This document shows positions 4,734 to 9,510 of a stretch of DNA of 27,207 bases, piece after piece. The first letter of the stretch is position 1; each line of letters opens with the position of its first letter. This DNA comes from a virus (lineage: Duplodnaviria > Heunggongvirae > Uroviricota > Caudoviricetes). A program made the translations under genes and the position numbers. The notes under the pieces were generated by a model. That model made no database searches. It was not told where the DNA came from and was given only the letters and a program-made list of their open reading frames with translations. The stretch lies in the IMG/VR virus record IMGVR_UViG_2619619134_000016; one strand, 5' to 3'.

Positions 4734-5508
4734 ATTTTCTTTAACTACTGCAATTACTCATACCACGAAATAAAAGACGATGAGGAAGAACAAAGTGGCT
4801 GATTTTTGTTCAGCTAAATATAACATCAGTTTTGAAGAGCGGGATGAACTATTAATGGACTATGGTGAATTACGCGGTGGAAGTGCTGCTGATGTCGAAT
4901 CCTAGCGTGATGACTATGAAGCGGGAAAAACTCCGGTCGAAGCATATTGTGATGAGTGGGGCGATGAATGAGCGAGATTAATTATCAGGAAGGGCATGAA
5001 ACGGCGGGGCAAGCAAAACCAGTGGCATGGCGATATCGCTACGTGAAAAAAGCGTTACGGACTTTCAGGGGAAGTAGTGGTCTGGTGACTGGAAATATGT
5101 ACCGAAAAAAGAGGATTGTAACGACAGGCCGAACTATCAAATTCAGGCCTTATTCACTGCCTCACCAGTCCCGGTTACATCAGAAGAACTGGTTAAAGCT
5201 GTGCACTTTTATGAACAACTAAAACGCGAAAATCCACCAACATCCGGCAACTAGATTAATGGATTAACTATGTCGGTTAAACGACCAGCCAACTGAAAAA
5301 GCGGAAACCTGATTACAGGTTGCCAGATAAGGCAATGAGCTACCTGGCGCGGAACGGACTGATAAGTATGGGGAATGTTTTACGATGAACCTTTAGACTA
5401 AAGAGTTTGTAACGCTATGTAAGTGATTTTTTCTGGTTTAGATATTTATATGTCCGGCCAAATTGAGGTGTGTTTAAATGTAATTGCACATTGATTGTAG
5501 GAGGAATA

Positions 5509-5688
5509 ATGAAAAACGCATTGCAGTTTTTGTTTGTTGCGTTCTGGTTGTTCGCATCATGTATGCCCATCATCTTCACAGCAAGGTATATGGAAAAAGT
5601 TGATGTTTTGATATTAATATTTGGATATATAAATGCCCTTTTTTTAGGGGTGTTCATGGCGGTCATGTGCATTGAATACTGGCGGTAA
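5509..5688 (+). CDS. Small hydrophobic (membrane) protein, 59 aa
   Basis: ATG at 5509 preceded by a strong AGGAGG Shine-Dalgarno at correct spacing; product has two hydrophobic segments. The track ORF starts further upstream at 5470. Confidence 0.4.
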   Translation: MKNALQFLFVAFWLFASCMPIIFTARYMEKVDVLILIFGYINALFLGVFMAVMCIEYWR

Positions 5689-6022
5689 ATACAGCGAACT
5701 CCATTGGTTTAGTTGGATATTTACTGTGCTGGACAAAAACGGTTTGCGGGGAAATCTTAGTTAAGTAGAATGACTGCGGGTGCTTGAGGCTATCTGCCTC
5801 GGGCATGGACACCAACGGCAGATAGAGAAAAGCCCCAGTTAACATTACGCGTCCTGCAAGACGCTTAACATTAATCTGAGGCCAATTTCATGCTAGACAC
5901 ATGTAGGTTAGCCTCTTACGTGCCGAAAGGCACGGAGAAGCAGGCTATTGTTAACACCAAGCTGTAATGTCCCCTTTGAACCATTCTAAAATGTCCCCAG
6001 ACAATTCTCTGGGGGATTTTTC

Positions 6023-7363
6023 ATGATCAAAGAGACTGTTACGATGAGTCATAAGGAACTCCACCGACTTCAGATTATTCAGGAGTCAATTAATCGACAT
6101 ATTACTCAGGAACAAGCTGCGGCACGCATTGGCATTTCTATTCGGCAGGTTAAACGTCTGGTGCAACGGTATAGAAATGAAGGGCCTTCTGGTCTGGTTT
6201 CCCACCGACGTGGAAAGCGTCCTAATAATTCCTTTTCTACTGAATTCAGAGCAACAGTAATTTCACTCCTCAAAGGCCGTTACGCTGATTTTGGACCTAC
6301 GTTTGCGTGCGAAAAATTGCGCGAGATACACGGTTTATCTTTATCCGTTGAAACTCTCAGAAAGTGGATGATAGAAGAGGGGTTATGGCGTGAACGCCGT
6401 CGTAAAATTGCCCGTATATATCAACGCCGCATGCGACGACCATCTTACGGTGAACTGATCCAGATTGATGGCTCACCTCATGACTGGTTTGAAAATCGAG
6501 GCCCCAGATGTACACTGATCGTTTTCATTGATGATGCCACCAGTGCGTTGATGGCGTTGCGTTTTGTGCCTGCTGAAACAACCCGGGCTTACATGGAAAC
6601 CCTCCGGGGTTACCTTAATGATCATGGCGTACCGCTCGCTCTCTACTCTGATAGACACAGTATATTCAGGGTAAATAACCCAGAGCGGGAAGGTGAGCTG
6701 ACCCAGTTCACTCGTGCGATAAAGACACTGGGCATCGAGCCAATCCATGCCAACAGCCCGCAGGCAAAAGGGCGGGTAGAGCGCGCCAATCAGACACTAC
6801 AGGACAGGCTGGTCAAAGAAATGCGGCTTCAGAATATCAGTGATATTGAAACAGCAAATGCATGGTTGCCGACCTTTATTGAAGCCTATAACAACCGGTT
6901 CGCTACGTCGCCTCGTACTACTGATAATGCTCATCTTGATGTGCACCATTCTGAAGAGGAACTGGGTTATATCTTCAGCCTACAGGCGAAGCGCGTTCTG
7001 TCTAAAAATCTCACTTTCCAGTACAAAAGCAGTGCGTTTCAGGTACGCAGTGAGAGCCGGGGATATCGACTTAGGCATTCGGTTGTTACTGTATGCGAGA
7101 ACTTTGACGGTGAAATTAACGTTCTGTATGACGGGAAAGCGCTGGGCTGGGAAAAGTATGTTGATGGCCCGGAGCCTATACCACTGGATGATGAAAAGAG
7201 TGTCCATGAACGAGTGGATAATGCCCGTATTGATTTACGCTCAAAATACTATGTTAAACCTAAAGCTGACCATCCCTGGCTTACGCGCCGAACGCAAAGT
7301 CATCAGCAAGTTAAGCCCCCGAAGTTACCTAAAAAGAAGCCTGATCCCGATAAAAAAGATTGA
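6023..7363 (+). mobile_element. Insertion-sequence transposase, single ORF of 446 aa, DDE integrase-core type with N-terminal HTH; IS481-like or ISNCY/IS1202-like; element ends not resolved
   Basis: N-terminal HTH (AARIGISIRQVKRLVQRY) and motifs consistent with a DDE triad (IQIDGS, YSDRHSIF, KGRVERANQTLQD). I could not identify convincing terminal inverted repeats or target-site duplication. Confidence 0.7.
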
Positions 7364-7799
7364 AACCAAGATCGATTCGGTTGAGTGCATATCCATTCAT
7401 AGGGTAGATTCTTAAGTCGCGTTTCTGGTGTTCATTTTCGGGTGGTTTGTTACTTGTTTTACCGGGGATATGCCAGAAACGCGCTGAGTCAGTCTGGGCG
7501 GTGCGCGTAATGAGACGTTATGGTAAATAGCCTATGCTAATGTCCGCTAAGAGCAAGAAGCGGAAGTTGGCAGTTTTGTGGACTGTCCCCACAAAAGTGA
7601 CTACAGAAATAGTTGCAATTCATAATTGATCATGGGTTGTCAGTTAAACTCGTGGCGATTTAAATAGACTAATTGGGAGTGCGTCCATTACTTATATCTT
7701 GTAATGTTAACTATCAGAAATGATACAAAGATAATATGTCTTTAAAGAAAAGGCTGATGGCGAAAAGTGGCCCGATGAGGGCCACAATACGGCTGTCAC

Positions 7800-8132
7800 T
7801 TAGACGTAAATATCAATGGTGCCAGCGGTATTTGTATCGTCTTTTTTCTCTTCTTTTTTATCAGGCTGAACTGTCGCGTCTTCATTCTTTTTCTCTGCCT
7901 GCTGCCTTAACAACTGCTCCAGTTGAGCCCAGAGGCTTTCAATTTGCTTCTGTACCAATGCAGCCATTTCTTTTTTCTGCTGTGTCGTCATCCCCTCTTC
8001 CGATGAGATTTTCCCAAGCTTTTCAGTCAGCACCTGAATTTGTCTTGTGATTTTGGCTATTTCTGATGTTCCTTCCGGGGCGGAGTTGTTTGAAATAACG
8101 GTTGAGGTATTTCCCTGAATTGTGACAGACAT
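7800..8132 (-). CDS. flxA: FlxA, sigma-28-dependent prophage protein, 110 aa
   Basis: 110-aa ORF with coiled-coil character, neighbouring ydfV and relB as in Qin; directly preceded by a sigma-28 consensus promoter. Confidence 0.8.
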   Translation of the reverse strand: MSVTIQGNTSTVISNNSAPEGTSEIAKITRQIQVLTEKLGKISSEEGMTTQQKKEMAALVQKQIESLWAQLEQLLRQQAEKKNEDATVQPDKKEEKKDDTNTAGTIDIYV

Positions 8133-8155
8133 AGATTTCTCCTTTTAAAAAAGCA

Positions 8156-8183
8156 CTATCGGCATGCACAAAAAAATCTTTAA
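8156..8183 (-). promoter_or_regulatory. Sigma-28 (FliA) class promoter for flxA: TAAA, 15 nt, GCCGATAG on the minus strand
   Basis: Reverse complement of 8156..8182 reads TAAAGATTTTTTTGTGCATGCCGATAG, matching the TAAA-N15-GCCGATAA consensus in 7 of 8 positions of the -10 element, about 25 nt upstream of the flxA start. Confidence 0.7.
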
Positions 8184-8334
8184 TCGTATTTCTTGTGTCA
8201 TTAATTGTTTGATGTTCAGATTGTTTTCCTCGCGGGCTGGCGCGCCTCAGAAAGTAAAGCTTGTTGACAGGGGTAAACGTTCGGCAATAATTTTCTGCCG
8301 CATGCGGGTGTTGCATAAAACGTGTTACGTTCCT

Positions 8335-8640
8335 TTATCGACAGGTCAGGTCACCGCTCACCCGCCGACGAGAAAGCAACACTGACATGCTAAAGCAAAA
8401 AATAGATGAATAAGTTGAGTTGTGCATATGTAGCCTGACCGTCACAAAGTATATGGTGTCTGTACCAGTAAGATGATGGCCGGACTCTTTAAAAACGAGC
8501 TGACCTGCACAATACAGGATGGACTTAGCAATGGCTGCTCCTGGCACAAAGCGGACAGTGATCACCGTTCTTACGACTACTTTCTGACTTCCTTCGTGAC
8601 TTGCCCTAAGCATGTTGTAGTGCGATACTTGTAATGACAT
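8335..8640 (-). CDS. ydfV: Hypothetical prophage protein, 101 aa
   Basis: 101-aa ORF between flxA and relB, matching the size and position of ydfV in Qin. Its 5' end overlaps the relBE promoter region, so start and expression are uncertain. Confidence 0.5.
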   Translation of the reverse strand: MSLQVSHYNMLRASHEGSQKVVVRTVITVRFVPGAAIAKSILYCAGQLVFKESGHHLTGTDTIYFVTVRLHMHNSTYSSIFCFSMSVLLSRRRVSGDLTCR

Positions 8641-8653
8641 TTGTAATTACAAG
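8601..8653 (+). promoter_or_regulatory. relBE promoter and operator: -35 TTGCCC (8601..8606), -10 GATACT (8624..8629), operator repeats CTTGTAATGACATTTGTAATTACAAG (8628..8653)
   Basis: TTGTAAT/ATTACAA inverted-repeat operator read directly upstream of relB; consistent with RelB/RelE autoregulation at relO. Confidence 0.65.
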
Positions 8654-8664
8654 AGGTGTAAGAC

Positions 8665-8904
8665 ATGGGTAGCATTAACCTGCGTATTGACGATGAACTT
8701 AAAGCGCGTTCTTACGCCGCGCTTGAAAAAATGGGTGTAACTCCTTCTGAAGCGCTTCGTCTCATGCTCGAGTATATCGCTGACAATGAACGCTTGCCGT
8801 TCAAACAGACACTCCTGAGTGATGAAGATGCTGAACTTGTGGAGATAGTGAAAGAACGGCTTCGTAATCCTAAGCCAGTACGTGTGACGCTGGATGAACT
8901 CTGA
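8665..8904 (+). CDS. relB: RelB antitoxin, 79 aa
   Basis: Product MGSINLRIDDELKARSYAALEKMGVTPSEALRLMLEYIADNERLPFKQTLLSDEDAELVEIVKERLRNPKPVRVTLDEL matches RelB as I recall it; stop overlaps the relE start (TGATG). Confidence 0.9.
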   Translation: MGSINLRIDDELKARSYAALEKMGVTPSEALRLMLEYIADNERLPFKQTLLSDEDAELVEIVKERLRNPKPVRVTLDEL

Positions 8905-9191
8905 TGGCGTATTTTCTGGATTTTGACGAGCGGGCACTAAAGGAATGGCGAAAGCTGGGCTCGACGGTACGTGAACAGTTGAAAAAGAAGCTGGTTGAAG
9001 TACTTGAGTCACCCCGGATTGAAGCAAACAAGCTCCGTGGTATGCCTGATTGTTACAAGATTAAGCTCCGGTCTTCAGGCTATCGCCTTGTATACCAGGT
9101 TATAGACGAGAAAGTTGTCGTTTTCGTGATTTCTGTTGGGAAAAGAGAACGCTCGGAAGTATATAGCGAGGCGGTCAAACGCATTCTCTGA
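8904..9191 (+). CDS. relE: RelE toxin (ribosome-dependent mRNA endonuclease), 95 aa
   Basis: Product MAYFLDFDERALKEWRKLGSTVREQLKKKLVEVLESPRIEANKLRGMPDCYKIKLRSSGYRLVYQVIDEKVVVFVISVGKRERSEVYSEAVKRIL matches RelE. Confidence 0.9.
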   Translation: MAYFLDFDERALKEWRKLGSTVREQLKKKLVEVLESPRIEANKLRGMPDCYKIKLRSSGYRLVYQVIDEKVVVFVISVGKRERSEVYSEAVKRIL

Positions 9192-9262
9192 ACCAAAGCA
9201 TGACATCTCTGTTTCGCACCGAAGGTGACACTTCTGCTTTGCGTTGACAGGAGAAGCAGGCT

Positions 9263-9418
9263 ATGAAGCAGCAAAAGGCGATGTTAATCGCCCTGATCGT
9301 CATCTGTTTAACCGTCATAGTGACGGCACTGGTAACGAGGAAAGACCTCTGCGAGGTACGAATCCGAACCGGCCAGACGGAGGTCGCTGTCTTCACAGCT
9401 TACGAACCTGAGGAGTAA
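9263..9418 (+). CDS. hokD: Hok-family membrane toxin HokD (RelF), 51 aa
   Basis: Hand translation from ATG 9263 to TAA 9416..9418 gives MKQQKAMLIALIVICLTVIVTALVTRKDLCEVRIRTGQTEVAVFTAYEPEE; below the track cutoff. Confidence 0.85.
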   Translation: MKQQKAMLIALIVICLTVIVTALVTRKDLCEVRIRTGQTEVAVFTAYEPEE

Positions 9419-9486
9419 GAGACCCGGCGGGGGAGAAATCCCTCGCCACCTCTGATGTGGCAGGCATCCTCAACGCACCCGCACTT

Positions 9487-9510
9487 AACCCGCTTCGGCG
9501 GGTTTTTGTT
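9487..9510 (+). terminator. Rho-independent terminator after the relB-relE-hokD operon
   Basis: GC-rich hairpin ACCCGC-TTCG-GCGGGT followed by a T-run. Confidence 0.6.

Follow-up and report, generated by a model that had tools for sequence, protein, structure and literature searches.

The segment from 5949 to 9249 of the window (the whole 27,207-nucleotide stretch of viral DNA that was analysed) is very probably one transposable unit of the IS1202 family, an ISEsa1-type passenger-carrying insertion sequence (IS) or small unit transposon. The unit is 3301 bp long; the transposase gene is its left arm, and it also holds flxA, ydfV and relBE. It is built of three parts: a left module with the transposase gene, exchangeable cargo (flxA and ydfV), and a fixed right module with relB, relE and the right inverted repeat. 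Its insertion struck a prophage hokD gene in the region where translation starts. The features discussed below are as follows.

5778..5948, plus strand: stranded 5' half of a type I toxin-antitoxin locus of the hokD type (hok mRNA leader and antisense sok region); target DNA
5934..5948, no strand: left copy of the target duplication, GGAGAAGCAGGCTAT, spanning the hok Shine-Dalgarno sequence and the first two bases (AT) of the ATG
5949..5998, plus strand: left inverted repeat (IRL), TGTTAACACCAAGCTGTAATGTCCCCTTTG and then a second box, ..AAAATGTCCCC; both boxes are one direct repeat
5994..6015, plus strand: hairpin 3, the second TGTCCCC box paired with the purine-rich ribosome-binding site (GGGGGA), then a U-run and the ATG
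6023..7363, plus strand: transposase gene, an intact ORF of 446 aa (439 aa from the ATG at 6044) with a helix-turn-helix (HTH) at its N-terminal end
7364..7568, plus strand: non-coding tail of the left module, conserved among variants
7569..8536, minus strand: variable cargo, with flxA at 7800-8132 and most of ydfV at 8335-8640, both on the minus strand; delimited by blastn module mapping
8537..9249, plus strand: right module, with the relB upstream region, relB (8665-8904), relE (8904-9191) and the right inverted repeat (IRR)
9250..9264, no strand: right copy of the target duplication, GGAGAAGCAGGCTAT, which with G9265 rebuilds the hok Shine-Dalgarno sequence and ATG
9263..9418, plus strand: hokD (relF) coding sequence, WP_000813254.1 in an identical record, severed from its own leader and downstream of relBE

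Ends and architecture of the unit

The original prediction described a DDE transposase insertion for which neither matching terminal repeats nor a target duplication could be found, and it supposed that the element might be larger than its transposase gene. The insertion is borne out and the element is indeed larger, with the extra length lying to the right and not in the upstream flank; repeats and duplication are both present, the ends at 5949 and 9249 and the duplication at 5934-5948 and 9250-9264. A repeat search of the window places the perfect 15-bp direct repeat GGAGAAGCAGGCTAT exactly at both junctions, at a spacing of 3316. The tips are imperfect inverted repeats, TGTTAAC.../...GTTGACA, in which TGTTAACACCAAGCTGTAATGTCCCC and TGTCAACGCAAAGCAGAAGTGTCACC match at 22 of 30 positions, the TGT and the (A/G)TGTC block included, and the IRR terminates in ...CTTCTGCTTTGCGTTGACA at 9249. 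This pairing of the IRL with the reverse complement of 9220-9249 was the top tip-anchored match in the whole 27-kb window, the runner-up reaching 19. Boxes of the TAATGTCCCC type lie at 5965-5974, 5989-5998, 7537-7547, 8547-8557 and 9222-9232. Presumably both tips are bound at their boxes by the transposase, which would join them to target DNA after a cut staggered by 15 bp and so duplicate GGAGAAGCAGGCTAT.

The left module comprises the IRL with its two TAATGTCCCC boxes, a hairpin that masks the ribosome-binding site, the gene for the DDE transposase and a tail of 205 bp. The extent of the gene agrees with the ORF list, as originally read. Its product scores 466 bits against the NCBIfam model NF033594 ISNCY_2 (cut-off 250; E = 7e-140), has Pfam matches to HTH_28, HTH_29, HTH_32 and HTH_23 at residues 10-116 and to rve_3 at 238-291, and is named by PGAP an "IS1202-like element ISEsa1 family transposase". 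The putative catalytic residues, taken from a reading of motifs, are D149, D170-D171, D210, E253 and Q260. An ISEsa1-family transposase gene of the same 446-aa length, WP_004196353.1, occurs on plasmids with DNA about 99% identical. The intact reading frame and the near-identical copies at different sites suggest, at the level of sequence, that the present copy may still be active. The tail contains an 11-bp perfect stem (7420-7430 with 7471-7481) and, at 7537-7547, the IRL-box-like CTAATGTCCGC; conservation among variants ends at 7554-7579 of the window.

Hairpin 3 lies inside the element, where it starts in the second box of the left end, and like hairpins 1 and 2 described below it exceeds what chance would give. 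Its left arm, TCCCCAGA at 5994-6001, is as first described, and its partner is TCTGGGGG at 6008-6015 rather than TCTGGGGA, so that the Watson-Crick stem has 7 bp (CCCCAGA / TCTGGGG) plus a G-U pair. A sequence scan classes it as terminator-like, and it is contained in the minimum free energy fold of 5949-6060. Equivalents with different stem sequences are found in 10 diverged relatives, with z from -1.5 to -4.3; this conservation is that of single-sequence folds, and the consensus that RNAalifold derived from 12 relatives aligned with MAFFT had just 3 pairs, because indels put the arms out of register. In these predicted folds the structure looks like a Shine-Dalgarno-masking or terminator hairpin, and it would most likely keep transcripts entering from the hok promoter from expressing the transposase. 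A promoter scan gave hits no more numerous than in shuffled sequence.

The right module recurs in all 14 of the complete element types compared, at 93-100% identity in 12 of them, 91% in L024 and 83% in L021. Its adjacent genes encode RelB (WP_000534858.1) and RelE (WP_000323025.1), as annotated in an identical record, and by sequence they constitute a predicted relBE type II toxin-antitoxin system. The cargo was compared through the annotations of L001 and L008; other copies have cargo unrelated to flxA and ydfV, one example being a 10.5-kb nickel/chromate resistance block. The TGTCCCC motifs reported at 5968, 5992 and 7584 are all present, the first two inside the left end and its second box. 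The third was considered as an end marker and rejected, since it lies within the flxA-type cargo and is missing from variants with other cargo.

The interrupted hokD locus

Rfam RF01794 (sok) matches 5778-5949 over the full model (1-157) with 104.1 bits (gathering threshold 59; E = 1e-23), and the last AUG of the model reads AU|U at the insertion point. Two hairpins in this region, which had been taken as a structured flank possibly belonging to the element, are helices of the hok/sok leader and hence target DNA. Hairpin 1 pairs CTATCTGCC at 5790-5798, as originally placed, with GGCAGATAG at 5817-5825, one base from the position first given for that arm, and the repeat search extends it to 5779-5798 / 5817-5836; hairpin 2, CGTGCC-GAAA-GGCACG at 5919-5934, was read correctly. 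The left inverted repeat begins just 74 bp 5' of the ATG and leaves both of them outside the element; as regards the flank, this is the kind of finding that the original prediction had said would refute it.

Positions 5400-5948 of the window are 96-97% identical to the sequence which, in other prophages, leads up to an intact hokD gene and ends at its ATG. The comparison with an uninterrupted prophage that the original prediction had proposed yields an empty site, the hok locus L003 of another prophage, in which the leader runs unbroken into hok and GGAGAAGCAGGCTAT occurs once only. When 5400-5948 is joined to 9265 onward the result is colinear with L003 across the junction, and hokD is colinear over it with the intact hok of that locus. 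The hok locus of the window is thus disrupted, since its leader stops at 5948, the hokD coding sequence begins at 9263, and 3301 bp lie between. Insertion had two consequences. The hok promoter, leader and sok region were stranded at 5778-5948, which is the "structured flank" of the original description, and the hok coding sequence, its Shine-Dalgarno sequence and ATG rebuilt by the duplication, came to lie behind the outward-reading relBE. The resulting layout is that of the classical relB-relE-hokD (relBEF) operon.

Mobility, target preference and alternative explanations

The IRL is found in identical or near-identical form at more than 180 other loci. Units with the same two ends, 2.3-12.8 kb in length, occur at many other sites, and more than 12 independent sites have these ends around different cargo, each with its own 13-17 bp duplication; these units have the modules on the left (5949 to about 7560) and on the right (8537-9249) in common and differ in their cargo. 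On IncI-gamma/K1 plasmids pndA contains the same 3301-bp unit at 99.5-99.9% identity, as does hok on an IncF plasmid, and every such copy has a matching 15-bp duplication of its own. Complete units flanked by matched duplications were found in at least 8 hok-family genes and at no fewer than 5 non-hok sites; insertions in non-hok DNA have duplications of 14-16 bp (L012, L020, L021, L026, L040). Forms of 2261 bp and 2575 bp are internal deletions of the transposase gene, and a search for a complete element without cargo or without relBE found none.

Insertion is biased toward the start regions of hok-family genes. Roughly half of the units lie at the start codon of a hok-family toxin gene (HokD, plasmid Hok, PndA and others): among 51 distinct left flanks, about 28 are the initiation region of such a gene. 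At five further loci no more than 1 nt separates the end of the Rfam sok model from the IRL. Outside hok, GGCA ending 17-18 nt 5' of the IRL is present in 6 of 21 flanks; the hok sites supplied both the motif and the position for this test in non-hok flanks, and P is about 6e-7. Since the duplications vary in length from 13 to 17, a fixed-position frequency matrix of the target flanks came out almost flat. The hok initiation region is the target that these elements prefer, marked by a GGCA(A) motif directly 5' of the duplicated bases.

It is conceivable that the unit transposes without any such targeting and that the concentration at hok start codons reflects survival, toxin-silencing insertions being harmless and hitch-hiking widely. 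The copies there are over-sampled, since hok loci reside on highly mobile replicons and one Qin-type site accounts for 78 of 187 IRL hits, and GGCA is missing at the expected position in 15 of the 21 non-hok flanks. Survival does not, however, readily account for an insertion point within a few bases of the ATG and in one orientation in at least 8 different hok-family genes, for a hok-derived motif at the same distance in non-hok sites, or for second copies inserted 15-17 bp past an existing right end (L029, L164, L228). We consider this explanation unlikely and prefer targeting, although the hok bias could arise partly from selection or from recombination between hok homologues.

A transposase that is a passive passenger is a far less probable alternative, in which a relBE segment entered hokD by plasmid recombination and now spreads among hok loci by homologous recombination. 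PMC6379469, citing Ramisetty and Santhosh 2016, gives plasmids as the origin of relBE and the ancestral hokD ORF as the place of its integration; hok homologues are similar enough to recombine, and the flanks of L149, L158 and L207 look recombinant. Against this, the duplication is just 15 bp, specific to each site and matched on both sides (for example GGAGAAGTCAGCTAT, TGGAGGGGCTATGAT and GATATGCTGACAAA), duplications accompany the insertions in non-hok DNA as well, and the junctions coincide with TGT-starting inverted repeats, as in the description of the IS1202 family.

We regard as more improbable still the view that the element is the catalogued 1.6-kb ISEsa1 (about 5949-7560) without duplication, with flxA, ydfV and relBE as plain neighbours and a coincidental 15-bp repeat. 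ISEsa1 is listed by ISfinder, according to PMC10132070, as 1609 bp with 15/22 inverted repeats and no detectable duplication, and conservation among copies does end at about 7554-7579. A right end close to the transposase gene is nevertheless ruled out for this copy. Local alignment of the IRL with 7364-7700 gave just one weak 15-nt match, and an exhaustive 22-mer scan of left starts at 5930-5964 against right ends at 7480-7639 reached at most 13/22, the chance level, as against 22/30 at 9249 beside a perfect 15-bp repeat. Moreover, the same ends bracket different cargo at independent sites with their own duplications, and relBE is present in every complete copy compared.

The idea that the element itself uses the upstream flank (5790-5934) as its leader or as a regulatory RNA, prompted by the flank's strong structure and its position directly 5' of the transposase gene, has next to no probability and is refuted by the full-length Rfam sok/hok leader match, by copies of the flank that are joined straight to hok without any IS in other prophages, and by the unrelated sequence that takes its place at non-hok insertion sites.

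Relation to known elements and to the K-12 relBEF operon

The closest catalogued element is ISEsa1 (Enterobacter sakazakii; ISNCY / IS1202). It shares the PGAP transposase name, its 439-aa transposase fits translation from the ATG at 6044, and its 1609 bp correspond, by catalogue figures, to the conserved left module of 1605-1631 bp. In contrast to the ISfinder and Harmer-Hall descriptions, the unit analysed here is at least 3.3 kb long, ends past relE and generates duplications of 13-17 bp instead of none. ISEsa1 would appear to lack a target duplication in ISfinder because the true unit extends beyond the 1609 bp, its right end lying past relE, although a genuinely short autonomous form may exist. 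Together with ISCARN112, ISEsa1 has been assigned to a separate "no duplication" branch (PMC10132070). On the present analysis the limits catalogued for this IS, which is widespread in enterobacteria, would need correction, and its odd standing in the IS1202 family as an element without target duplication would be accounted for. It also bears on annotation, since PGAP now divides the intact transposase into a pseudogene and "ydfW".

The assignment to the IS1202 family is supported by the HTH Pfam domains, rve_3 and the ISNCY_2 match. Members of the family have two extra Asp residues between D1 and D2 and a Gln 7 residues after the catalytic Glu (bioRxiv 10.1101/2022.12.17.520857); a motif reading, as distinct from an alignment to the authors' set, finds this pattern as IQID149, FID170D171, YSD210 and VE253RANQTLQ260. 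The imperfect inverted repeats of about 24-30 bp, with a 5'-TGT start and a second block around position 20, are likewise those of the family. The duplications, 15 bp here and 13-17 bp in other copies, agree with the 15-17 bp of the ISTde1 subgroup, with which the element also shares the N-terminal HTH and the D..DD..D..E..Q(+7) core. The closest simple relatives (Hahella, 62% amino-acid identity) are 1449-bp IS elements with duplications of 15-17 bp at 12 sites. Typical members of the ISTde1 subgroup are described as simple IS of 1.3-1.7 kb, mostly off plasmids and with no reported target preference, whereas the lineage described here has relBE and cargo, is often found on plasmids and prophages and favours the start regions of hok genes.

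Two other groups of elements offer parallels. The ISAba32 / ISAjo2 subgroup, which targets the XerC-XerD sites dif and pdif, is also oriented, with the recognised sequence, the duplicated bases and the IRL in that order, and its targets too are frequent on plasmids; its duplication is 5-6 bp at a Xer site, in contrast to 15-16 bp at GGCA(A), usually within the ribosome-binding hairpin of hok. That another IS1202 subgroup inserts in one orientation, directed by a motif at a distance of one duplication length, suggests a targeting geometry that is family-wide. The "transporter IS" ISKpn21 and ISRel10 resemble the unit in having passengers between the transposase gene and the right end within one pair of inverted repeats. 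They differ from it in that one passenger here, relBE, never varies and lies directly next to the right end, and a further slot takes exchangeable cargo of up to 10.5 kb. Passengers inside one pair of ends, with duplications at independent sites, are what is expected of a passenger-carrying IS or unit transposon. relBE, flxA and ydfV travel as one 3.3-kb unit between chromosomes and IncI / IncF plasmids, and the same chassis takes the 10-kb nickel/chromate resistance cargo into hok/sok of conjugative plasmids, which makes it a carrier of adaptive genes whose landing site can be predicted. We found no description of a composite relBE/ISEsa1 element in the searchable literature.

The relBEF / hokD region of the Qin prophage of E. 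coli K-12 has the same genes and the same right junction, and it retains the IRR and the right copy of the duplication upstream of hokD. It differs in that its hok leader and IRL are lost, along with four fifths of the transposase gene, homology beginning at 7179 of the window, such that a transposon is not recognisable in K-12 and "ydfW" is the C-terminus of the transposase. relBE and hokD are co-transcribed in K-12 (PMC3598666), and relBE has been described as having integrated, from a plasmid origin, into an ancestral hokD ORF (PMC6379469, in the part that cites Ramisetty and Santhosh 2016). The unit described here provides a concrete mechanism for the arrival of relBE, the paradigm chromosomal toxin-antitoxin system, in the Qin prophage and for its fusion to hokD. 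On balance, and with some reserve, we lean toward a reading in which ISEsa1 is not a 1.6-kb repeat-less IS but the left arm of relBE-capped cargo transposons that home in a single orientation on the ribosome-binding or start regions of hok-family genes on plasmids and prophages, guided by GGCA(A) one duplication length from the left end, and in which relBEF of K-12 is the half-deleted scar of a type II toxin-antitoxin transposon that captured a type I toxin gene.

Ends, target duplication and empty site

A perfect 15-nt direct repeat, GGAGAAGCAGGCTAT (5934-5948 and 9250-9264), was found in a repeat search of the window. Its two copies enclose 3301 bp that start with TGTTAACACCAAGCTGTAATGTCCCC and end with ...GGTGACACTTCTGCTTTGCGTTGACA, and the tips of this stretch are inverted repeats matching at 22 of 30 positions. 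When the first 30 nt were matched in inverted orientation to all positions of the 27-kb window, 9249 was the single top position, with the runner-up at 19/30. The G that follows the right repeat copy restores the Shine-Dalgarno sequence (SD) and ATG of hokD, and because 5400-5948 fused to 9265 onward is colinear across the junction with L003, the uninterrupted hok locus of another prophage, L003 represents the empty site. Transposition is classically proved by three things, terminal repeats, a target duplication and an empty site, and here they delimit 5949-9249 as the transposed unit rather than the 1.6 kb surrounding the ORF. The original prediction had reported neither matching terminal inverted repeats nor a target duplication, and in this it was mistaken; its suspicion that the element exceeds the transposase gene was correct.

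Features of the element and its surroundings
5778-5949, hok mRNA leader and antisense sok
5949 to ~7554-7579, conserved left module
5994-6015, hairpin 3
6023-7363, transposase ORF, 446 aa
7364-7568, conserved noncoding tail of 205 bp
8335-8640, minus strand, ydfV
~8537-9249, conserved right module
9263-9418, hokD

The transposase ORF, placed as first predicted and confirmed in the ORF list, has an N-terminal HTH and an rve-type core in a domain search, scores 466 bits with NCBIfam ISNCY_2, and is named "IS1202-like element ISEsa1 family transposase" by PGAP. The IS1202-family signature, taken from bioRxiv 10.1101/2022.12.17.520857, is readable in the protein as D149, D170-D171, D210, E253 and Q260. 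A 27-bp in-frame indel (6079-6105; nine residues, QESINRHIT) with TCAGGA repeats on either side lies in the HTH region, and among copies from viral, metagenome and genome scans the 3274-bp form without it is roughly as frequent as the 3301-bp form.

The structured upstream flank, previously considered as a possible part of the element, is matched by the whole of Rfam model RF01794 (hok mRNA leader with antisense sok) at 104.1 bits (E = 1e-23; gathering score 59). Hairpins 1 and 2 of the flank (first arm at 5790-5798, and 5919-5934) are helices of that model, and the hok AUG that closes it reads AU|U in the window. Window 5400-5948 matches DNA directly 5' of hokD and hok-family genes in thousands of other E. 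coli records (~86-97% identity), and in L003 the same leader continues unbroken into ATGAAGCAGCAAAAG..., the hok coding sequence. Because of the RF01794 match and the joining of leader to hok in other E. coli records and L003, the flank is target DNA outside the element, the 5' half of a type I toxin-antitoxin locus left stranded by the insertion. The structural details first described need slight revision: hairpin 2 and all three TGTCCCC motifs are present in the window as described, the stem of hairpin 1 exists with its second arm at 5817-5825 rather than 5816-5824, and hairpin 3 exists with TCTGGGGG as its second arm, leaving a 7-bp Watson-Crick stem. Sub-threshold Rfam matches at 9427-9508 (isrK, 25 bits; rsmX) cover the hokD 3' untranslated hairpin/terminator and most likely reflect merely the terminator stem-loop.

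The gene order is dicB ... dicC-ydaT-like ... (5949 region) flxA-ydfV-relB-relE-hokD-rem-ydfU-Q. Window 5400-8000 is 100% identical to a Qin-like prophage of E. coli MB10, and at least 80% of it is present in 761 of 5426 complete E. coli genomes.

Modules, cargo and copies elsewhere

The loci compared came from GTDB genomes (78 loci), viral contigs (60 loci) and metagenomes (102 loci), plus annotated plasmid regions. Paired ends bracket elements of 2261, 2575, ~3300, 4487, 4600, 4901, 5822, 6093, 7320, 9083 and 12843 bp, the two shortest being internal transposase deletions. Most of these elements have a 13-17 bp duplication of their own at the flanks; for the 2575-bp form it is a 15-bp repeat with two mismatches. 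In blastn of other elements against the window element, the left module and the right module (relB upstream region, relB, relE and the right terminal inverted repeat, IRR) are conserved, and the DNA between them, which in the window carries flxA and ydfV as cargo, is unrelated among elements. No complete element lacking the type II toxin-antitoxin module relBE occurred among those compared. IncI-gamma/K1 plasmids from E. coli and Salmonella carry the 3301-bp form at 99.9% identity beside trbA, in the start region of pndA, and an Enterobacter IncF plasmid carries it at 99.5%.

The 12,843-bp version resides in the conjugative Phytobacter IncF plasmid pMRY16-398_1 (L008, 1516-14358), where it occupies a hok/sok locus of the leading region adjoining psiB-psiA, with a 15-bp duplication and 10.5 kb of cargo comprising ncrABCY (nickel) and chrBA (chromate) resistance and other genes. 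Alignments with about a dozen Phytobacter and Enterobacter plasmids break at the left-module boundary, window 7568. Judged by eye only, a 7.3-kb copy with a 16-bp duplication (L012, 9927-17246) splits an apparent LacI-family regulator ORF, and taking out the element plus one copy of the repeat restores ..NQAVQYLFEQGHRRI...

The noncoding tail 3' of the transposase stop codon contains a perfect 11-bp stem, CGCGTTTCTGG (7420-7430) with CCAGAAACGCG (7471-7481), around a 40-nt loop; to judge from length, the 1449-bp Hahella relatives are too short for this tail. Motifs resembling the left-end box flank the cargo (7537-7561 and 8537-8557; inverted-repeat pair I4): the end of the left module bears CTAATGTCCGC in direct orientation, and an inverted GCGGACA is found where the right module starts. 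In most variants each cargo boundary is itself a GTCCGCT..AGCGGAC hairpin. These motifs might mark a nested nonautonomous element or a place where cargo is exchanged, or be additional sites for the transposase. The ydfV ORF spans the boundary of cargo and right module at ~8537; its 5' third is kept in all elements and the remainder varies from one cargo to another. The ORF could be chimeric or spurious; another possibility is that a divergent promoter and gene start come from the right module.

Target choice and the hairpin before the transposase start

Across its 187 occurrences the left end is preceded by 51 different flanks, of which about 28 are hok-family initiation regions that read ...AGCC...GGCAAGGAGAAG..ATG|IRL (IRL, left terminal inverted repeat), always in one orientation. 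Complete elements with matching duplications on both sides are present in at least eight hok-family genes; the genes hit encode HokD, R1/F-type Hok, PndA and products starting MLTKYALV, MKMPNQP and MKQQSWRF. At five loci (L006, L008, L013, L016 and L027) the Rfam sok match stops no more than one base from the left end. At hok sites GGCA ends 17 nt 5' of the left end, and it stands at that distance in 6 of 21 non-hok flanks (~0.3 expected; P ~6e-7), two of the six being homologous loci. Second copies lie 15-17 bp past an existing right end (tip TTGACA) in L029 (Hahella), in L164 and in L228. From the hok bias, the GGCA spacing and the second copies beyond right ends, we therefore propose an oriented, motif-directed insertion in which the duplicated bases lie between the motif and the IRL. 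That the motif may be recognized through likeness to the element's own right tip is a guess, and the hok bias probably also owes something to selection in favor of harmless insertions on mobile replicons.

Tandem arrays, in which the second member lies 10-17 bp past the right end of the first, were seen at L024 (6654-11600), L228, L164 and L029 (9929-12843); L024 holds two different family members at a single hok site. At L023 the left end adjoins an inverted hok start, an arrangement that suggests an inversion between copies.

Hairpin 3 lies inside the element, where the second TGTCCCC box pairs with the purine-rich ribosome-binding site (GGGGGA), and it is followed by a U-run reaching the ATG. 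It was flagged by a terminator scan and is part of the MFE fold of the element's 5' end. In ten relatives with differing stems (for example CCCCAGA/UCUGGGG, CCCCUUUUG/CAGGAGGGG, CCCCG/CGGGG and CACCCAUC/GGUGGG) each MFE fold still pairs the box with a purine-rich tract 5' of the start codon, with z-scores of -1.5 to -4.3. The hairpin would stop or silence transcripts entering from the hok promoter, a role that would be functionally sensible because the transposase gene is always co-oriented with that promoter at hok sites.

Consequences for hokD and relation to known elements

The insertion cuts hokD off from its promoter, the mok/sok region and the 5' regulatory folds, and leaves it downstream of relBE with its SD intact. 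relBE and hokD (relF) are co-transcribed (PMC3598666). A passage of an earlier account describes relBE, of plasmid origin, as "integrated" into the ancestral hokD reading frame, and that passage names no vehicle (PMC6379469, citing Ramisetty and Santhosh 2016). E. coli K-12 has kept IRR and the right duplication copy but is homologous to the window only from 7179 onward; a deletion between ydfX and the interior of the transposase gene eliminated most of that gene together with the left end and the hok leader. The K-12 "YdfW" (49 aa, GTG start; window 7214-7363) has the reading frame and the exact sequence of the transposase C terminus, which is why PGAP renders the intact ORF as a "partial" pseudogene (6044-7093) plus ydfW.

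The transposase family, ISEsa1, hok/sok, relBE and their adjacency were known. A literature search that reached a minority of subscription papers found no description of the element's true extent and 15-bp duplication, of the relBE-fixed two-module-plus-cargo architecture, or of homing to hok start regions. The mechanistic steps beyond the anatomy of the element are those that we infer.

The ISfinder entry ISEsa1 is listed at 1609 bp, with inverted repeats matching at 15/22 positions, a transposase of 439 aa and no duplication that could be detected, and is grouped with ISCARN112 in a "no duplication" branch (PMC10132070). Compared by its published description, its 1609 bp equal the length of the conserved left module, and its 439 aa equal the window ORF read from the second ATG at 6044. 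A scan of the boundary region in the window copy found no inverted repeat better than 13/22 near the 1609-bp boundary. The simplest reading is that the catalogued limits mark the point where copies with different cargo cease to align; an entry so delimited would stop at the cargo boundary, and for that reason no duplication would ever have been seen. The nearest simple relatives, from Hahella (62% amino acid identity), are 1449-bp IS that have good inverted repeats and, at 12 sites, duplications of 15-17 bp, and because of these the duplication length is a property of this transposase clade, in agreement with the 15-17 bp rule of the ISTde1 subgroup. The dif-targeting ISAba32/ISAjo2 subgroup has the same reported insertion geometry, with 5 bp there versus 15-16 bp here.
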